A stretch of 64,000 bases of DNA from Armatimonadota bacterium (GTDB taxonomy: Bacteria > Armatimonadota > UBA5829 > DTJY01), in assembly GCA_023511795.1 (NCBI GenBank), contig JAIMAU010000012.1:2008-66007 (forward strand). Reading direction: 5' to 3'. The position numbers and the translations under genes were made by a program. Below the pieces are notes generated by a model that was given only the letters and a program-made list of their open reading frames with translations, made no database searches and was not told where the DNA came from. Below, piece by piece: positions 1,780 to 44,980 of the stretch (the first letter of the stretch is position 1; the number at the start of each line of letters is the position of its first letter).

Positions 1780-3657
1780 TCACTTAAAGCTCGGTAGAAT
1801 GATACCTCTCATGATAACATTTTGTGCAAAGACGAACACTGTTAGTGTTGGTATGGCCGCTATTGTCAATGCAGCCATCGTTATATACTTCGGGGCCGTA
1901 ATCTGAAGCTCATACAGCCAAACCATCATCGTCCACATTTTTGGGTTTTGGCAAACCAGGAACGCAAACATAAACGCGCCATACGCCGCCGTAAACGAAC
2001 TGAGTGCAATTACTGCAAAAATAGGCTTAGATAGCGGAATTGTGATTTGCCAAAACATCCGCGCTTCGGATGCTCCATCGATTATTCCCGCTTCATAAAG
2101 TTCCTTCGGGAGGCTATCAAAGAAACCTTTAAGTAGGAAAATCGAAAACCCACCAGCCATTCCCGGAAGAATCAGCGCCCAAAAAGTGTTAAGCATATGG
2201 AGCTTCTTTAGGAGCAAGAAATTTGGAATCAATGTTACTTCCGCAGGAAATGCCATTGTGGCCAACAAAAAGAGCAACACCTTGTACGAATAGCGAAGGT
2301 TATACCGCGAAAGAGAATAAGCGCACAGTGGGTTAACAATTAAATGGGTTAAAATAGCAGCGAGACAAAAGACAAAGGTGTTGAATACTGCCCTGCCATG
2401 AAGAAGTATGTAGTTCAAAACCATTGCATAATTGCGAATTATAAAATGCTTTCTTAATTCCCTATGGTGTGCAAGTACATAATGCCAGTCGGCAAGGTGC
2501 TGGGGGGGAGATAGGTCTAAAAGAGAAGCATACTTTGTTCCATAGGCTTTATTGATTGCATCAAGGCTACCGTATTTTCTGAAAAGATATTGTCTGTATA
2601 GGTTTTCTGAGTTTACAGCTTTTATTGCGGTGACTGGAACAACTTTCGAAATAAAATCCATCCAGTCAACGAGCGGTGTTCCCTCAGCTGGTGCCTCCTT
2701 TGGTAAGACAATCTGGTCAAACGATGAGTAACTTGTACCATAGATCCTATTTACCTCTTCGATATTTCCCCCATAACGGTTTTGAAGAAACTTCCGATAA
2801 GCCGGCAATGCCTTTGAGTTTAGAACCATATAACGGAACGGGAGCATAGTTCGTGCGAACTCTTCCCAGTCGGCTCTTTGCCTGGGATCAGCGGGAAGGG
2901 TAGGGGAAAAGTGTACTTCCATAAATGATTTGTAATTAGTACCGTAGGCTTTGTTTAGTTTGGCTATATCGCCATCGTATTTGTTCTCCTTTAAGAATGT
3001 CCAAAACAATGGGTCAATGCAAATTATCCGCCGAAATTCCGATGGCAATGATGCTTTGAACTCCAGCCACTCTTGCATTTTTGGGGTCTTCTCTGGCTGC
3101 CACTCACGGCTTTCCGTGCGCTCAAAAGGCGTAAAAACGGTCTCGAAGCTTTCATTTTCCTCGCGATAAAGCTTGTTGAGAGCATTAATGTCGTTATTAA
3201 ATCGCCTTCGAAGCCAAGCCCGATATTCGTTCAGCAAACGGCTTGGAGCATTACTTATGACACCATAATTAGCTTGCATATATTTAAGCGGAATTGTCCG
3301 ACTAAAATCCTCCCAGTCCTTTACCATTCTCATTTGATTTGTTGTGAGAGGTGTTTTCTGAGGTGGAGCAATGTCCTCCATTTTCGCAAAGTCGGTACGG
3401 TAGTAGCCATTAATTGCATCCATATCGGCAGCATACTTTATCTCGGCAAATTTGGCGAAAAGAATCGAATCGTCATACCAGTATTTAGGTATTACGCTGT
3501 AGTTGTTAACATCAACACCGCTTTTTGTGGAAGTTGCCAACATAATGAGGAAGGGATAGACCATCGTTATTGCCCCCAAAGTTAGGACAATATATAATCC
3601 CGCGATGAGCAAGCGCATTGACCACGAACGTCTGCCAACAGTTGGGATAATCGACAT
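1780..3657 (-). CDS. CUT1-type (MalG-like) ABC sugar permease with a ~350-aa extracytoplasmic insertion
   Basis: The C-terminal ~220 aa is a permease core with an EAA loop (LYEAGIIDGASEARMFWQITIPLSKP). A single N-terminal TM is followed by a long non-membrane repeat region. The ATG abuts the stop of the upstream ORF (3657/3658), which implies translational coupling. Confidence 0.85.
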   Translation of the reverse strand: MSIIPTVGRRSWSMRLLIAGLYIVLTLGAITMVYPFLIMLATSTKSGVDVNNYSVIPKYWYDDSILFAKFAEIKYAADMDAINGYYRTDFAKMEDIAPPQKTPLTTNQMRMVKDWEDFSRTIPLKYMQANYGVISNAPSRLLNEYRAWLRRRFNNDINALNKLYREENESFETVFTPFERTESREWQPEKTPKMQEWLEFKASLPSEFRRIICIDPLFWTFLKENKYDGDIAKLNKAYGTNYKSFMEVHFSPTLPADPRQRADWEEFARTMLPFRYMVLNSKALPAYRKFLQNRYGGNIEEVNRIYGTSYSSFDQIVLPKEAPAEGTPLVDWMDFISKVVPVTAIKAVNSENLYRQYLFRKYGSLDAINKAYGTKYASLLDLSPPQHLADWHYVLAHHRELRKHFIIRNYAMVLNYILLHGRAVFNTFVFCLAAILTHLIVNPLCAYSLSRYNLRYSYKVLLFLLATMAFPAEVTLIPNFLLLKKLHMLNTFWALILPGMAGGFSIFLLKGFFDSLPKELYEAGIIDGASEARMFWQITIPLSKPIFAVIALSSFTAAYGAFMFAFLVCQNPKMWTMMVWLYELQITAPKYITMAALTIAAIPTLTVFVFAQNVIMRGIILPSFK

Positions 3658-6135
3658 CTATTCTTCCCTCCCTGCTGCGGAAAAGCGTACGTTTCTCAAT
3701 ATGCGTAGCTGATACATTGTGAAGGCTATCAGCATACTTCCCATCATCCAGGCGGCAGCCGTAGCATATCCGAATCTTAGATACATAAATGCGTTATACC
3801 AAATTTCAAGGCCGATAGTGTGAGTTGCATTTAGGGGGCCACCACCTGTCATGACAAAGATGTTTTCCATTGCCTTAAACGAACCTATGAATGCTCCGAC
3901 GAAATTGATGATTATAAGAGGCTTTAGGGTTGGCAACGTTATGCGCCATATCTTGCTCCATACGCCAGCTCCGTCAATATCCGCTGCCTCGTACATTTCA
4001 TCAGGAATGCTCTTCATTGCAGCTAGATAAATAATACTTCCAGGCCCAGCACCCGCCCATATGCCTGGGAGTATGACGCAAAGCATAGCCAGTTTTGGGT
4101 CACCCAGCCACTTAAGAGGCAAATTAAATTTGAGGATTTCAGGGTTAATTCTTAATGTATTCGCAAGAGCTTCTGCAGCTTGATTGTAGAATCCTAAAAG
4201 TGTGTTGAACAGTCCTTGAGGCGTGGGGTCATAGAACCACATCCAAAGAAACATAATCACCAGACCACTTGTCACCGCAGGTAGGTAGTAGAGAGTTCTA
4301 AAAAGCATCTTGCCACGCGGAACTTCATGAAGCATTAATGCTAGGAAAATTGGTACGCAGAAGCCAAGGCTTAGATTCATTCCGGCATATAATAAACTGT
4401 TTAAGATACCCCGCCAGAAAGTTTCTGTTGTAAACACCTCAATAAAATTGTCTAAACCAACCCATCTACTGTTGCCAATAATTCGGTAATCCTGGAATGC
4501 CATAATCATTCCACGAACAAGCGGGTAGTATGCCCAGACGAGTATTGAAAGCACTGCCGGAAGCATAAAAAGCCAAGCGACTACATGAACCATCTTGCTA
4601 CCGCGCACGACCCTCGTGTCTGCAGTTTCATCAGCATGTGCCTTTGCCAACTTCCTAACCTGCGTAGCACCAACTGAGCAAATGAGTACTAGGAGTGTCG
4701 CAAATATAACACGAGCCGTCTTTCTCCTTCTTTCTTGAACCCCAGGGTCTACATAGCCAAGCATTTTGCGGTCAATATTGCGAGCGGCTTCATCCAAAAT
4801 TTGTTTAGGGTCTTTGTCAGGACGAAGGACAGCTTCCTGCAGGGGATAATCTAGCTCAATATAAATCATCTCGCAATTTTTGCCATGAGGCTCGGGCCGA
4901 CCATATTTAAAAGCTTCCCTGTTAGCTTCGATCCAACTCTTTGGAATTCCACGGAGATATTCGACATAGCCATACTTCTCGAGCATAACGGGGTTAACCA
5001 TTTTTCCCAACCCTGACTCTACGTACGCCTTTGTCCTCACCCTGTCGGCCTCTTCGCTGCCCATGAACTTGATGTACTCCCAAGCAGCATCTCGAACACG
5101 CTTGTCTCTAATTGTAGCATTGATTCCCCACATACCGGCGTTGATTTCATTCGCATGCCCTGCCGGGCCCGCTGGGAGCGGCGCAATTCCTATCAGGCTC
5201 GGATTGATGTTCGAGCGGTTAGTTACAAGATCCGTGGAATATGCAAACCACTGAGCTATTTTCCCTTGTTCAATATCCTGTGCGTAGGTGGCGGTCCTAG
5301 TTGCAACTCCAATCATTTCACGGCCATTGCGCTTCCATTTTCCAATCATTAGCTTTTTATAAAAATTAAGCGCTTTCACACCAGCCGGGGAATTAAAGAC
5401 GCAATGCCACTCGCCTTTTTCATCTTGAGCAACAATATCGCCGCCAGCTTGCCAGAGAAAATTAATCCAATGGAAAGCCGTACTACTTGGCCCTGATGAG
5501 AACGCAAAACCCCATTGACCCTTTTCAGGGATAGTTAGCTTCTTGCAATACTCATAGAATTCGTCCCAAGTTTTGGGAGGCTTGTTTGGATCGAGGCCGG
5601 CAGCTTTGTAAAGGTCTTTACGATAATATAAGGCTTGTACGCATTGAAACCATGGAATCGAATATACCTTGCCATCTACAGTGATGACTTTTCGGATTTC
5701 TGGGTGAATCTTTTTTAATATTTCAGGGTCCTTTTCGATGTACTCATTGAGGGGATAGAGAAACCCTTGGTTTATAAAATTGTGAAGCTTCCGGAAGTTT
5801 ACATAGAAAACGTCAGGGGCAGTACCGCCTGCCATTGCCATGAGTAAGCCACTCTCTGCTGCCCTTCCTTGTACCTGCAAGCCGCTTGCGCTAATGATTT
5901 TTATGTTCGGGTGCAATTCCTGAAAGCGCTCAAAAACTGCGCGATTTGCACGCCGCCAAGGGTCGGTAGCGTCTTTAGGAGGAATACCCCAATCTCCACC
6001 CCATAAGCGAAGCTCAACAATTTCTTCCTTAGCGGACTTGTTAGTAACGGTATCGGCAAAAATGAGCCCTGAGCCGCAGGAAATTAACACACAAGCAAGC
6101 AGTAAGCGCAGTATATGCTTTTGGATCTTGAACAA
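3658..6135 (-). CDS. Fusion protein: lipoprotein-type sugar-binding protein (family 1 SBP) + extra TM + MalF-like ABC permease
   Basis: The ORF extends to 6201. The likely start is TTG at 6135, preceded by GGAGG with a 5-nt spacer, which yields a signal peptide with lipobox LISC. Residues ~45-485 look like a sugar-binding protein. An extra TM (ARVIFATLLVLICSVGATQV) precedes a C-terminal permease with an EAA loop (MYEAADIDGAGVWSKIWRITLP). Confidence 0.85.
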   Translation of the reverse strand: MFKIQKHILRLLLACVLISCGSGLIFADTVTNKSAKEEIVELRLWGGDWGIPPKDATDPWRRANRAVFERFQELHPNIKIISASGLQVQGRAAESGLLMAMAGGTAPDVFYVNFRKLHNFINQGFLYPLNEYIEKDPEILKKIHPEIRKVITVDGKVYSIPWFQCVQALYYRKDLYKAAGLDPNKPPKTWDEFYEYCKKLTIPEKGQWGFAFSSGPSSTAFHWINFLWQAGGDIVAQDEKGEWHCVFNSPAGVKALNFYKKLMIGKWKRNGREMIGVATRTATYAQDIEQGKIAQWFAYSTDLVTNRSNINPSLIGIAPLPAGPAGHANEINAGMWGINATIRDKRVRDAAWEYIKFMGSEEADRVRTKAYVESGLGKMVNPVMLEKYGYVEYLRGIPKSWIEANREAFKYGRPEPHGKNCEMIYIELDYPLQEAVLRPDKDPKQILDEAARNIDRKMLGYVDPGVQERRRKTARVIFATLLVLICSVGATQVRKLAKAHADETADTRVVRGSKMVHVVAWLFMLPAVLSILVWAYYPLVRGMIMAFQDYRIIGNSRWVGLDNFIEVFTTETFWRGILNSLLYAGMNLSLGFCVPIFLALMLHEVPRGKMLFRTLYYLPAVTSGLVIMFLWMWFYDPTPQGLFNTLLGFYNQAAEALANTLRINPEILKFNLPLKWLGDPKLAMLCVILPGIWAGAGPGSIIYLAAMKSIPDEMYEAADIDGAGVWSKIWRITLPTLKPLIIINFVGAFIGSFKAMENIFVMTGGGPLNATHTIGLEIWYNAFMYLRFGYATAAAWMMGSMLIAFTMYQLRILRNVRFSAAGREE

Positions 6136-43165: not shown

Positions 43166-43528
43166 TTCTCGCTTTCCCGTAGTTTTGTGCGAACATTCAT
43201 TCTACCAAAAATGCAGGCTCAGGTCAATGCGACGTGCCTTTTCCGCCCGCTGGCGACCCTTTCGATTCCATCTTCGCAGAGAATTGGCGGCTTACACCGC
43301 GCACCCCTGCCGCTTGCCAAAACCTCTTGTGAACCTGCGAAAGTGTCTAGGTTTCTTGCGATTTGCTTTACATTCTCTGACACTTAAAACGCCGGCCCGC
43401 CTTTCGAAGTTCGCCCGCCTGCCTACTCGCCCAATCCTGCCGCCACCAAAGCGGTGCAGTCCTCCCGCCCGATGTTCGCATCCCCCAACCCGCAGGTCAA
43501 GCAGGCGAAAAAGGTTCGTTAATTGGCA

Positions 43529-43561
43529 CAGCAAAGCAAAAGGCGGGGGAACGTCCCCGCC
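43529..43561 (-). terminator. Intrinsic terminator of the orphan gene 43604-44260
   Basis: The minus strand reads GGCGGGG-ACGTTC-CCCCGCC followed by TTTTGCTTTGCTG, 43 nt after the stop codon. Confidence 0.65.
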
Positions 43562-43603
43562 CTTCGCTCTACCCTTGTTTGACAGCCTGACAACCGCCAA
43601 AGA

Positions 43604-44260
43604 CTACGCAACCAAAAGGCCGCCAGCCGCGATTGTCGCCGGCGTGGACACATTACCAACGTCCGACGCCCTTGTGCCGCGGTACTGCACGACGTAAGTA
43701 TAATCAGCCGCGGGCCCATTGATTATGTCAATGTAGGGCGAAGCGGTCTCAAAGGCGATGAGTGTGTACTCTTCCTCACCATTCTTTTTCCTATAGATAT
43801 TGCATCCCCTAGCCCACGATGGCTTGCCGTTGTACTTCTCATTTGCCGGGGCAGTGCCAAAGTGAACCATAATCTTCCCCGGAACCGCTTCGAGGTAAAT
43901 ATCTGGAACTTCCTCGCCCGGCATTGCATTCGTTCGCGCATCATCCTTAACAGGAAGCCCAAGCGCCGCCCTTATTTCGTTCGTCATCGCCGGATGGTTG
44001 TTTATTCTTCTTACAAGAGGGCGCAGTATTTCAATACTATTCTTCCTTACCGCTTTCTTCGCCTCTGTGGCTTGCCTAGCGGCCGCCTGCCGTGTTACGT
44101 GCGTCGAGAGAGCACCGTCAAATATTATCTTCGCTTCATCAAGCGGCGTGAAGTCGCTCATTTGCAACCCGAAGTCTGCCAAATGCTCCTGAAGCACCGC
44201 CAGGAAGTTCGCAAGCCATGCAACGTACTGCGAGTCATTTCTCGGTACATAATCTGCCAT
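43604..44260 (-). CDS. Hypothetical protein, no recognisable family (helical N-half, beta-rich C-half)
   Basis: 218-aa ORF. ATG lies 8 nt after GGAGG, and the gene has its own terminator. No signal peptide or TM is visible, and base composition is similar to the neighbouring genes. Confidence 0.7.
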   Translation of the reverse strand: MADYVPRNDSQYVAWLANFLAVLQEHLADFGLQMSDFTPLDEAKIIFDGALSTHVTRQAAARQATEAKKAVRKNSIEILRPLVRRINNHPAMTNEIRAALGLPVKDDARTNAMPGEEVPDIYLEAVPGKIMVHFGTAPANEKYNGKPSWARGCNIYRKKNGEEEYTLIAFETASPYIDIINGPAADYTYVVQYRGTRASDVGNVSTPATIAAGGLLVA

Positions 44261-44406
44261 TCTATTTTCCTCCTCAGATTTGTTTAATCATCAAGTGCCC
44301 CCTCCAGAAAGTTTGGCGGCTTCGCAGATATATTTCAATGCGGGTTGAAATTGCTTGCCAGCATTTCTTGCGTAATTCTACCTCCCTCCAACCTCTTCCC
44401 ACCTTA

Positions 44407-44612
44407 GTACAAATCTTTTGTACTTTTGTGCAATCTTTTTGTACTTTTGTACAACATTTTTGTACTTCGGTACAACACTTTTGTACTTCGGTACAACACT
44501 TTTGTACCGCGGTACAACATTTTTGTACTTCGGTACAACACTTTTGTACTGCCGTACAATTCTTTTGCACAAGTCTTTTACAATCTTGCACGATGGTACA
44601 TCAGGCTTGTAC
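44407..44612. repeat. Tandem array of ~10 x 21-bp units with alternating GTACAA / TTGTAC half-sites
   Basis: Seven exact 21-bp units (consensus GTACAACAYTTTTGTACTTCG; units 3 and 6 are identical) plus three decaying units. There are 16 GTAC tetramers in 206 bp and no unique spacers. Confidence 0.9.
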
Positions 44613-44980
44613 TGCAGTTGGATGACGCTGGAGAGAGTCCCAATTCTTTCCCCAAAAAGCAGGAGCAACTTCTAGCGCTTTCTCTGTTCAACCGCTGTCC
44701 CCATCTAAAAGTACGACAGCTGATGATTTAATCGAATTATCAGTTAAAAACTGCTGAATCTTTAGTAAACAAATAATATTTTATTAATAAACCTCTTATC
44801 TTTTCTGAATTGTCAGATTGCCCAGCTTGCCAAGAAGTTTGCAAGACAAAGGGACTAAATAGCAATCTGGCGTACAATTTTCGCAAACTGAATGAAGGAT
44901 TAAGATGACCTGCGCAATAAGTTATCCAAAGGCTGTTCGAACATGCCTAATTCACAATGCTTGAAGCAAAGGAGAACCAC

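Follow-up and report, generated by a model that had tools for sequence, protein, structure and literature searches.

Partition centromere and operator arrays, such as parC of R1 and pSK41, parH of TP228, tubC, and sopC of F, consist of 4-12 phased tandem repeats upstream of the operon that they regulate; their sequence is unique to the replicon, co-evolves with the protein of the adjoining gene and is coated by an oligomerising binder. Plasmid iterons (R6K, RK2, P1, pPS10) are replicon-specific repeats of 17-22 bp, five to seven per array, located beside the Rep gene; monomers of Rep, a winged-helix protein, bind these direct repeats at an origin that also holds a DNA unwinding element and DnaA boxes. 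The operators of ArgR/AhrC are built of 18-bp palindromic ARG boxes 3 bp apart, which amounts to 21 bp from centre to centre. Sponge RNAs of the CsrB/RsmZ type carry many tandem short hairpins with a shared loop motif such as GGA, and the cyanobacterial short tandemly repeated repetitive (STRR) heptanucleotides, which are dispersed, and bacterial minisatellites are intergenic tandem repeats whose period is 7 or some multiple of 7. Here we analyse a 206-bp array of 21-bp units at positions 44407-44612 of a 64,000-nucleotide stretch of an Armatimonadota genome (contig JAIMAU010000012.1 of assembly GCA_023511795.1, positions 2,008 to 66,007; hereafter the window), together with the gene of a 218-residue protein on the minus strand (43604-44260), 147 bp from the array. 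We find that a large protein family is characterised by joint inheritance of array and gene, in which the period stays fixed at 21 bp while the sequence is free to change.

The window array is like a partition centromere in that tandem, phased, locus-private repeats stand directly upstream of a gene. However, no ParA, ParM or TubZ partner is present in 15 inspected neighbourhoods, the protein shows no ribbon-helix-helix (RHH), winged helix-turn-helix or helix-turn-helix (HTH) fold, the locus is chromosomal and has no plasmid or phage homologs, the array lies 3' of its promoter, and binding is here only putative. With iterons it shares the repeat length, the position beside a single gene and the private sequence, yet its units are dyads, its protein is a helical hairpin joined to an FN3 domain, and there is neither an indication of an origin nor any plasmid homolog. 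An initial annotation, made from the letters of the window alone, had considered an iteron- or centromere-like loading site; the lack of Rep, ParA, ParM and TubZ, and of an RHH or HTH fold, speaks against it. As in ArgR operators, one face of the DNA presents a palindromic site at every second helical turn, but ArgR uses two to three boxes with one regulon-wide consensus, whereas the window has 8-10 units and each locus another sequence. The window array is tandem, hairpin-capable and probably transcribed, like CsrB and RsmZ; unlike them, it has no shared loop motif, no covariation and no Rfam match, and would be part of an mRNA leader rather than a stand-alone small RNA. The family period is a multiple of 7 and heptamer repeats flank some family genes, as with STRRs, but STRRs do not keep to a single gene family, whereas the array accompanies one protein family and is dyad-symmetric. 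By analogy, the logic of the module resembles that of centromere/operator arrays and iterons, without their defining proteins.

A single array of 21-bp dyads in the window

Eight well-kept units occupy positions 44407-44574, each exactly 21 bp long and in register, and from there to 44612 the array runs on in two to three decayed units; no strand is assigned to the element as such. On the plus strand the unit reads GTACAA-cay-TTTTGTAC-tycg, and on the gene-sense strand TTGTAC-CGAA-GTACAAAA-GTG. Columns 1-6 (GTACAA) and 10-17 (TTTTGTAC) are near-invariant, and variation is found only in the two spacers. The dyad symmetry of array consensus units is real, and across the family it holds for most units. 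Tandem Repeats Finder (TRF), run on the window, reports a period of 21 with 7.7 copies and 85% matches at 44407-44567. The tetramer GTAC occurs 16 times in the 206 bp of the array, compared with 129 times in the whole window. With at most one mismatch allowed, GTACAA-N5-TTGTAC has 9 matches in the window against 0.05 expected, all of them within the array, and TTGTAC-N4-GTACAA has 7 against 0.07 expected, likewise confined to this locus. Elsewhere in the window nothing resembles these units, and a scan of 185,579 species genomes returned 95 unrelated stretches with one to four motif matches each and no array.

These readings bear out the initial annotation in its description of about ten tandem 21-bp units of GTACAA and TTGTAC half-sites, which the sequence, TRF and the dyad scans all return, and in the identity of units 3 and 6 and the count of 16 GTAC. 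It gave seven exact units and three decayed copies, where we read eight and two to three. It had also set the array apart from clustered regularly interspaced short palindromic repeats (CRISPR), rightly so: the units abut head to tail without spacers, and no cas domains occur in the scanned neighbours. A dispersed repetitive extragenic palindrome, which it had named as a finding that would count against it, is not what the window holds, as the dyad motifs sit at a single locus. An assembly artefact is unlikely as the source of the array, because many independent assemblies contain analogous arrays, one of them on a contig of 5.37 Mb. In a relative, locus L001 (94.7% identical), the contig ends inside the equivalent array.

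Array and gene are inherited together

The 218-residue protein has 29 close homologs, of which those with a source name come from an Armatimonadetes metagenome-assembled genome (MAG), and a profile search extends the family to 3412 cluster representatives at E<=1e-3. Locus DNA was fetched around the close homologs (L-numbers denote fetched loci). Every homologous locus for which upstream DNA is available carries 5-21 units of exactly 21 (or 42) bp before the gene. In the 400 nt upstream, the strongest autocorrelation lag is 21 or 42 in 19 of 19 distinct close-homolog loci, and arrays that TRF missed are still periodic by autocorrelation. A periodicity census of the collected DNA found 245 periodic segments among 946 family-upstream ones, with lags that are all 21 or 42, compared with 96 among 11,431 elsewhere, with mixed lags. 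Loci of a more distant subfamily (L125-L130) carry arrays too. Still more of them surface in the gene calls: distant homologs with 25-35% identity are annotated with heptad-periodic N-terminal extensions, all eight called proteins with an extension of at least 35 residues are periodic at 7 or 14 residues, and a ninth, P0164, was recognised by eye, which indicates that gene callers have translated 21-nt or 42-nt arrays.

The sequence of the units, by contrast with their period, is unrelated between loci, even between paralogs of one genome. The unit is TATCCC-N7-GGGATA in L004, GCAATG-N8-CATTGC in L005, CCATAGCGAATGGGGACGTTT in L007 and TGTGGT-N2-ACCACA-GAAAAGT in L115, and L006 and L007, which are paralogs of one MAG, have different arrays. 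Between loci, the distance of the half-sites within a unit ranges from 0 to 11 bp. The period remains exactly 21 bp even where the units of an array are only about 50% identical (L105, L110-L113); an exact two-turn period that is kept while the sequence drifts is the strongest and strangest constraint on these elements. Copy number is identical in contigs of the same species from different samples, on which ground a hypervariable contingency locus was rejected, and near-identical contig pairs show few differences, mostly inside the arrays.

Segments L110 1730-2568 and L112 2519-3357 are 97% identical over array, gene and 15 nt only, with unrelated flanks and no recognisable promoter in the shared part. 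This indicates that array and gene move together and form one unit, and the shared segment looks like a mobile or recently converted cassette. A phage or plasmid origin of the module was considered and rejected, no phage or plasmid relatives of the family gene having been found. The locus in the window is chromosomal by synteny with uvrA and uvrC.

Since such arrays co-occur with the gene across the whole protein family, the partner of the array is the 218-residue gene at 43604-44260 (minus strand), and not uvrA, the oxidoreductase or the SOS response. The link to uvrA and the oxidoreductase that the initial annotation had raised does not hold: these neighbours are conserved only in L001, uvrA and uvrC adjoin the gene only there and in the window, and neighbours are otherwise not conserved. 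A binding protein, according to the same annotation, was not obviously encoded nearby. The orphan gene that it had listed has turned out to be the partner, and its product is a candidate for the binder, which is the weakest step of our proposal. A literature search returned no description of this gene-array module.

A predicted sigma-28-type promoter belongs to the module

A motif of the form CTAAAGA-N13-TGCC-GATAAT recurs on the sense strand of homologous loci, and a leave-one-out scan with a position weight matrix ranks it first in the whole locus in 13 loci. In the window it corresponds to a predicted sigma-28 (FliA)-type promoter at 44736-44765 on the minus strand, with CTAAAG at 44765-44760, a 15-nt spacer and ACTGATAA at 44744-44737, and with a predicted transcription start near 44729. 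When left out of the matrix, this site comes fifth among about 128,000 positions, and it is the only strong one in the window; its -10 matches 6 of the 8 bases of GCCGATAA, and hence it is called a predicted promoter only. The family motif CTAAAG-N15-(T)GCCGATAA is found exactly or nearly so in L116, L117, L118 and L129. As judged from sequence, it has the -35 TAAAG, the -10 GCCGATAA and the spacing of about 14-15 nt of sigma-28 promoters, and the fliC promoter of P. aeruginosa likewise has a -35 of TCTAAAG and a -10 of GCCGATAA (PMC12784957). The family motif is thus predicted to be of the sigma-28 promoter type and part of the module. A sigma factor as neighbour was seen only at L130 and is not a conserved feature; there, a divergent 257-residue protein of the sigma-70 family (1833-2606, minus strand) adjoins a pair of paralogs of the family gene, and only its region 2 matches, with best similarity to the SigF, SigB and FliA groups.

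From promoter to array, a leader of about 120 nt (44613-44735, minus strand) can be read in the window, and a promoter-array gap of 60-120 nt is also found in L002, L004, L007, L114, L115 and L117. In the window, as in L002, L004, L007 and L113-L118, the promoter precedes the array; in the more distant subfamily (L125, L126, L128, L129) it stands between array and gene, and in L127 arrays flank it on both sides. For the window, the upstream position predicts that the array is transcribed from the minus strand. At many loci no more than 20-50 nt separate the end of the array from the ATG, and there the array lies in the transcribed leader. Between array and start codon, the window has a non-repetitive leader (44261-44406, minus strand) with the Shine-Dalgarno sequence GAGGAGG at 44269-44275, and this leader is largely conserved in L001. 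Past the gene, a terminator-like hairpin can be read at 43534-43561 (minus strand), GGCGGGG-ACGTTC-CCCCGCC followed by TTTTGCTT, which the consensus scan does not list.

The adjoining gene encodes a protein outside known families

AlphaFold2 models the 218-residue protein as an N-terminal helical hairpin (residues 9-100), including a helix of 54 residues, followed by an FN3-like beta-sandwich (residues 120-212); the mean predicted local distance difference test score is 86 over the full length and 91 over the N-terminal domain. The protein has no match in Pfam, PHROG, NCBIfam or PADLOC, and profile searches of the PDB together with Foldseek searches of PDB and BFVD return generic FN3 domains only and nothing for the N-terminal domain. 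The protein is therefore covered by no family of Pfam, NCBIfam, PHROGs, PADLOC or the PDB. The close family shares a conserved C-terminal tail, ...IAARGxLAA or LVA, as seen in the family alignment and at 43604-43630 of the window, where the C-terminus ...AAGGLLVA corresponds to the ...ARGxLAA of the family; the tail is reminiscent of ssrA-type ClpXP degradation tags.

Several observations concern the surroundings of the family gene. Tandem paralog pairs occur at L127 868-2229, at L130 338-1803 and upstream in L122 and L123, and in them an array precedes the first gene only. At two unrelated loci, L007 (1982-4565) and L125 (1-3372), the family gene stands just 3' of a restriction-modification/Vsr cluster that comprises Bse634I or Z1/DUF4420, a DNA methylase and Vsr, neighbours that may point to a genomic-island context. 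In the window, a gap of 438 bp (43166-43603) separates the start of uvrA from the stop of the family gene; it contains a proline-rich open reading frame on the plus strand that ends at 43522 and has only a single sub-threshold zinc-finger match, and the hairpin at 43542-43561 that resembles a terminator of the family gene.

DNA lattice, leader RNA or neither

As annotated, the array is a real, phased, multi-site, dyad-symmetric element. The best single reading of it, which we put forward tentatively and aware that it may well prove wrong, is that of a helically phased lattice of protein-binding sites in duplex DNA, which would serve as the cis element of a gene module complete in itself. We favour it over a leader RNA of tandem hairpins, but the mechanism is not settled. 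Read along the minus strand, the module would be composed of a sigma-28-type promoter, about 120 nt, 8-10 dyad units, about 147 nt with the Shine-Dalgarno sequence, the gene and a terminator. The lattice would present one dyad per two helical turns, all on one face of the DNA, and an oligomerising protein would coat it and thereby set the transcription of the adjoining gene; an array in the leader, as in the window, would act as a roadblock or an operator, and an array 5' of the promoter, as in the distant subfamily, as an upstream element. Given that each paralog has its own unit sequence, the binder would have to be specific to the locus, and the only such candidate is the gene's own product, which would amount to autoregulation by orthogonal protein-array pairs. 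Binding, transcription and expression are in this scheme predictions from sequence. What favours duplex DNA is a combination of features. An exact 21 bp, two turns of B-DNA, at about 50% unit identity fits a constraint on helical phase better than one on RNA; unit deviations that are neither compensated nor biased to one strand are expected of protein half-sites and not of selected base pairs; and placement on either side of the promoter is tolerated by a DNA element but not by one and the same RNA. Together with the dyads, these features favour the lattice. So do the constant company of array and family gene, the joint cassette of L110 and L112 and, in the window, half-sites that are kept beside spacers that vary. 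The association between array and protein points the same way: similarity of the units correlates with identity over protein residues 19-78 (Mantel rho 0.26, p 0.0002, composition-corrected) and not over the conserved residues 79-218 (rho 0.05), which is suggestive of co-evolution between array sequence and the variable region of the protein. Several points weigh against the lattice, and against the gene product as its binder. The protein has no recognisable DNA-binding fold; the family is acidic (mean isoelectric point 6.1), basic only in residues 67-100, with a net charge of about -5 in the variable region; the Mantel signal could come from two fast-evolving characters that share a phylogeny; a half-site spacing that ranges from 0 to 11 bp is unusual if the dimeric binders form a single family; and both the certain transcription of the array at the many loci where it ends close to the ATG and the purine-rich sense strand noted below fit a role as RNA.

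That role, the main rival reading, possible but in our judgement doubtful, would place the array in a 5' untranslated region of about 470 nt, as about eight tandem 6-bp hairpins or one long imperfect hairpin, with an effect on mRNA stability or translation or with a multivalent RNA-binding protein, possibly the gene product, as its ligand. Besides the promoters 5' of the array and the arrays close to the ATG, it draws on pairing potential. In 18 of 20 arrays, Watson-Crick-only pairing energy is lower than in column-permuted controls (mean z = -2.1; window z = -3.2), and the leader of the window folds with z = -8 compared with shuffles. The sense strand is purine-rich in 17 of 22 arrays, the one strand-specific feature, and the few differences between L110 and L112 are, by eye, in loops or wobble-compatible on the sense strand. 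Yet selection on base pairs is not apparent: compensatory cells in consensus-defined columns number 53 against 49.5 +/- 5.3, that is no compensation, and real units gain no stability over chimeras that join the left arm of one unit to the right arm of another (z = +1.9). An apparent covariation within arrays was an artefact of choosing columns on observed pairing, and it disappeared in two unbiased tests. Mismatches in the stems (GT 44, AC 32, other 70) reveal no clear strand bias and no clear excess of G.U, and the sense strand has the more stable fold in only 11 of 18 arrays. Moreover, arrays lie 5' of the promoter in L125, L126, L128 and L129, an exact period of 21 nt has no obvious rationale in RNA, no Rfam family covers the array (no match at the gathering threshold, and only spurious microRNA matches at E<=10), and the units of the window lack the GGA motifs of CsrA-type sponges. 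Of the tandem-hairpin RNA that the initial annotation offered as an alternative, transcription of the array thus remains as a prediction, while covariation and a G.U bias are missing. A broader proposal sidesteps the choice between DNA and RNA, and we regard it as speculative and on the unlikely side: each family member would have a private 21-bp dyad array and would use its fast-evolving N-terminal region to recognise it, whether in DNA or in leader RNA, with many orthogonal pairs per genome under a sigma-28-type promoter. It is also conceivable, though unlikely, that the array is selfish or otherwise independent of any protein, the product of a minisatellite-like expansion, or part of a dispersed repeat or mobile cassette, that rides with the gene, with a purely structural effect such as cruciform extrusion or the absorption of supercoils. 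Composite elements in L006, to which two of three array types there belong and which occur in at least four copies within 3 kb, would agree with this, as would the 7-bp tandem repeats 3' of the gene in several loci, the array-gene cassette in two contexts (L110/L112) and the concentration of differences inside the arrays of near-identical contigs. A neutral process, however, would not keep exactly 21 bp through about 50% divergence, nor retain 5-10 units beside nearly every family member, nor preserve dyad symmetry; copy number is the same across samples, and the motif of the window has a single occurrence in its 64 kb, while none of the 185,579 species genomes has it as an array.

Simpler readings of the sequence fare worse. 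Phased A-tracts bend DNA, and the window array has one A4-5 tract per 21 bp, by which the upstream or leader region could be curved and the promoter modulated; the initial annotation had expected intrinsic curvature on these grounds. Predicted curvature, however, is not above that of column-permuted arrays (mean z -0.2 and -0.6 for two wedge models), the window array is under the same models less curved than its own permuted mean, and the GC-rich arrays L004, L113 and L124 have no A-tracts at all, which makes this account very improbable. Coding, in which 21-nt units would be 7-codon repeats of an N-terminal extension or leader peptide, has in its favour that gene callers extend several homologs through the array and that the arrays of L110-L113 are open and in frame with the ATG. 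But stop codons in all three sense frames separate array and ATG in the window, stops separate them also in L002, L005 and L007, all three sense frames are closed in L105, variation falls in the spacers and not at third codon positions, some arrays lie 5' of the promoter, and the implied peptides have no features in common. Stops and inconsistent frames and peptides exclude coding as a general reading, and we consider it most improbable. To a LexA/SOS operator linked to uvrA we give next to no credence: the array does contain six copies of a GTAC-N4-GTAC core, at a distance of 1.2 kb from uvrA/uvrC, and the initial annotation had remarked on a resemblance to the LexA box, but RGTAC-N3-DGTWCB has no match in the window, array included, neither dyad is present upstream of uvrA or uvrC, and homologous arrays have unrelated sequences and different neighbours.

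Other repeats and motifs

The composite repeat of L006 (1788-2330, 2840-3170 and 4380-4560) has (GCCTCTTCCCAAACCCCGTGA)n and (CTCGAGGAGATCGGTACTTGG)n at its ends, with a long hairpin (TAACGAGAGGC...GCCTCTCGTTA) between them, and copies of it flank both the family gene and a small GIY-YIG gene on either side; 21-bp arrays can thus also be parts of a dispersed element. The 7-bp tandem repeats, for example GGGTTAT in four to five copies or AACCCTC in eight, stand directly 3' of the stop of the family gene; such heptamers are found at L108 1932-1964, L114 961-992, L115 3669-3762, L116 3663-3700, L123 3684-3771 and L004 5767-5791. Their length is one third of the 21-bp period, and the two heptamer runs of L115 are partly complementary. 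In L123 a small CRISPR-like array with a period of 61 bp and 3.5 copies (4578-4790) lies about 1.6 kb 3' of the family gene.

On an Armatimonadota chromosome (OY760504.1; L044), four 8-bp palindromes TTGTACAA occupy positions 5139-5176; this stretch resembles a promoter and immediately precedes a gene whose product is an HTH and nucleotidyltransferase-like protein. Their half-site has the same letters as that of the window array, but arrangement and context differ. Many genomes of Comamonadaceae (Variovorax, Rhodoferax, Giesbergeria and others) and of Bathyarchaeia have single exact matches to GTACAA-N5-TTGTAC-N4-GTACAA (L008-L087), and a Bacteroidales MAG, STD2_97, has multiple copies; conserved operators or separate kinds of repeat may be what these matches represent.

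Implications

The module accounts for two peculiarities of existing data, the spurious heptad-repeat N-termini that gene callers produce in the family of the 218-residue protein and the contig breaks of short-read assemblies at these loci. If our interpretation is right, one undescribed regulatory architecture would be common to thousands of uncharacterised genes from uncultured Armatimonadota and other uncultured bacteria, an invariant lattice of two-turn repeats whose sequence is private to each gene copy. The modules would be tied to a sigma-28 late-gene programme and would provide a natural set of orthogonal cis elements, possibly of orthogonal binder-site pairs, as well as a clean system for asking how a repeat period is selected independently of sequence. 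Should each family member indeed recognise its own private array, as DNA or as leader RNA, the family would add a new fold to those that recognise nucleic acids, and its regulation or assembly would follow a new, self-addressed logic.

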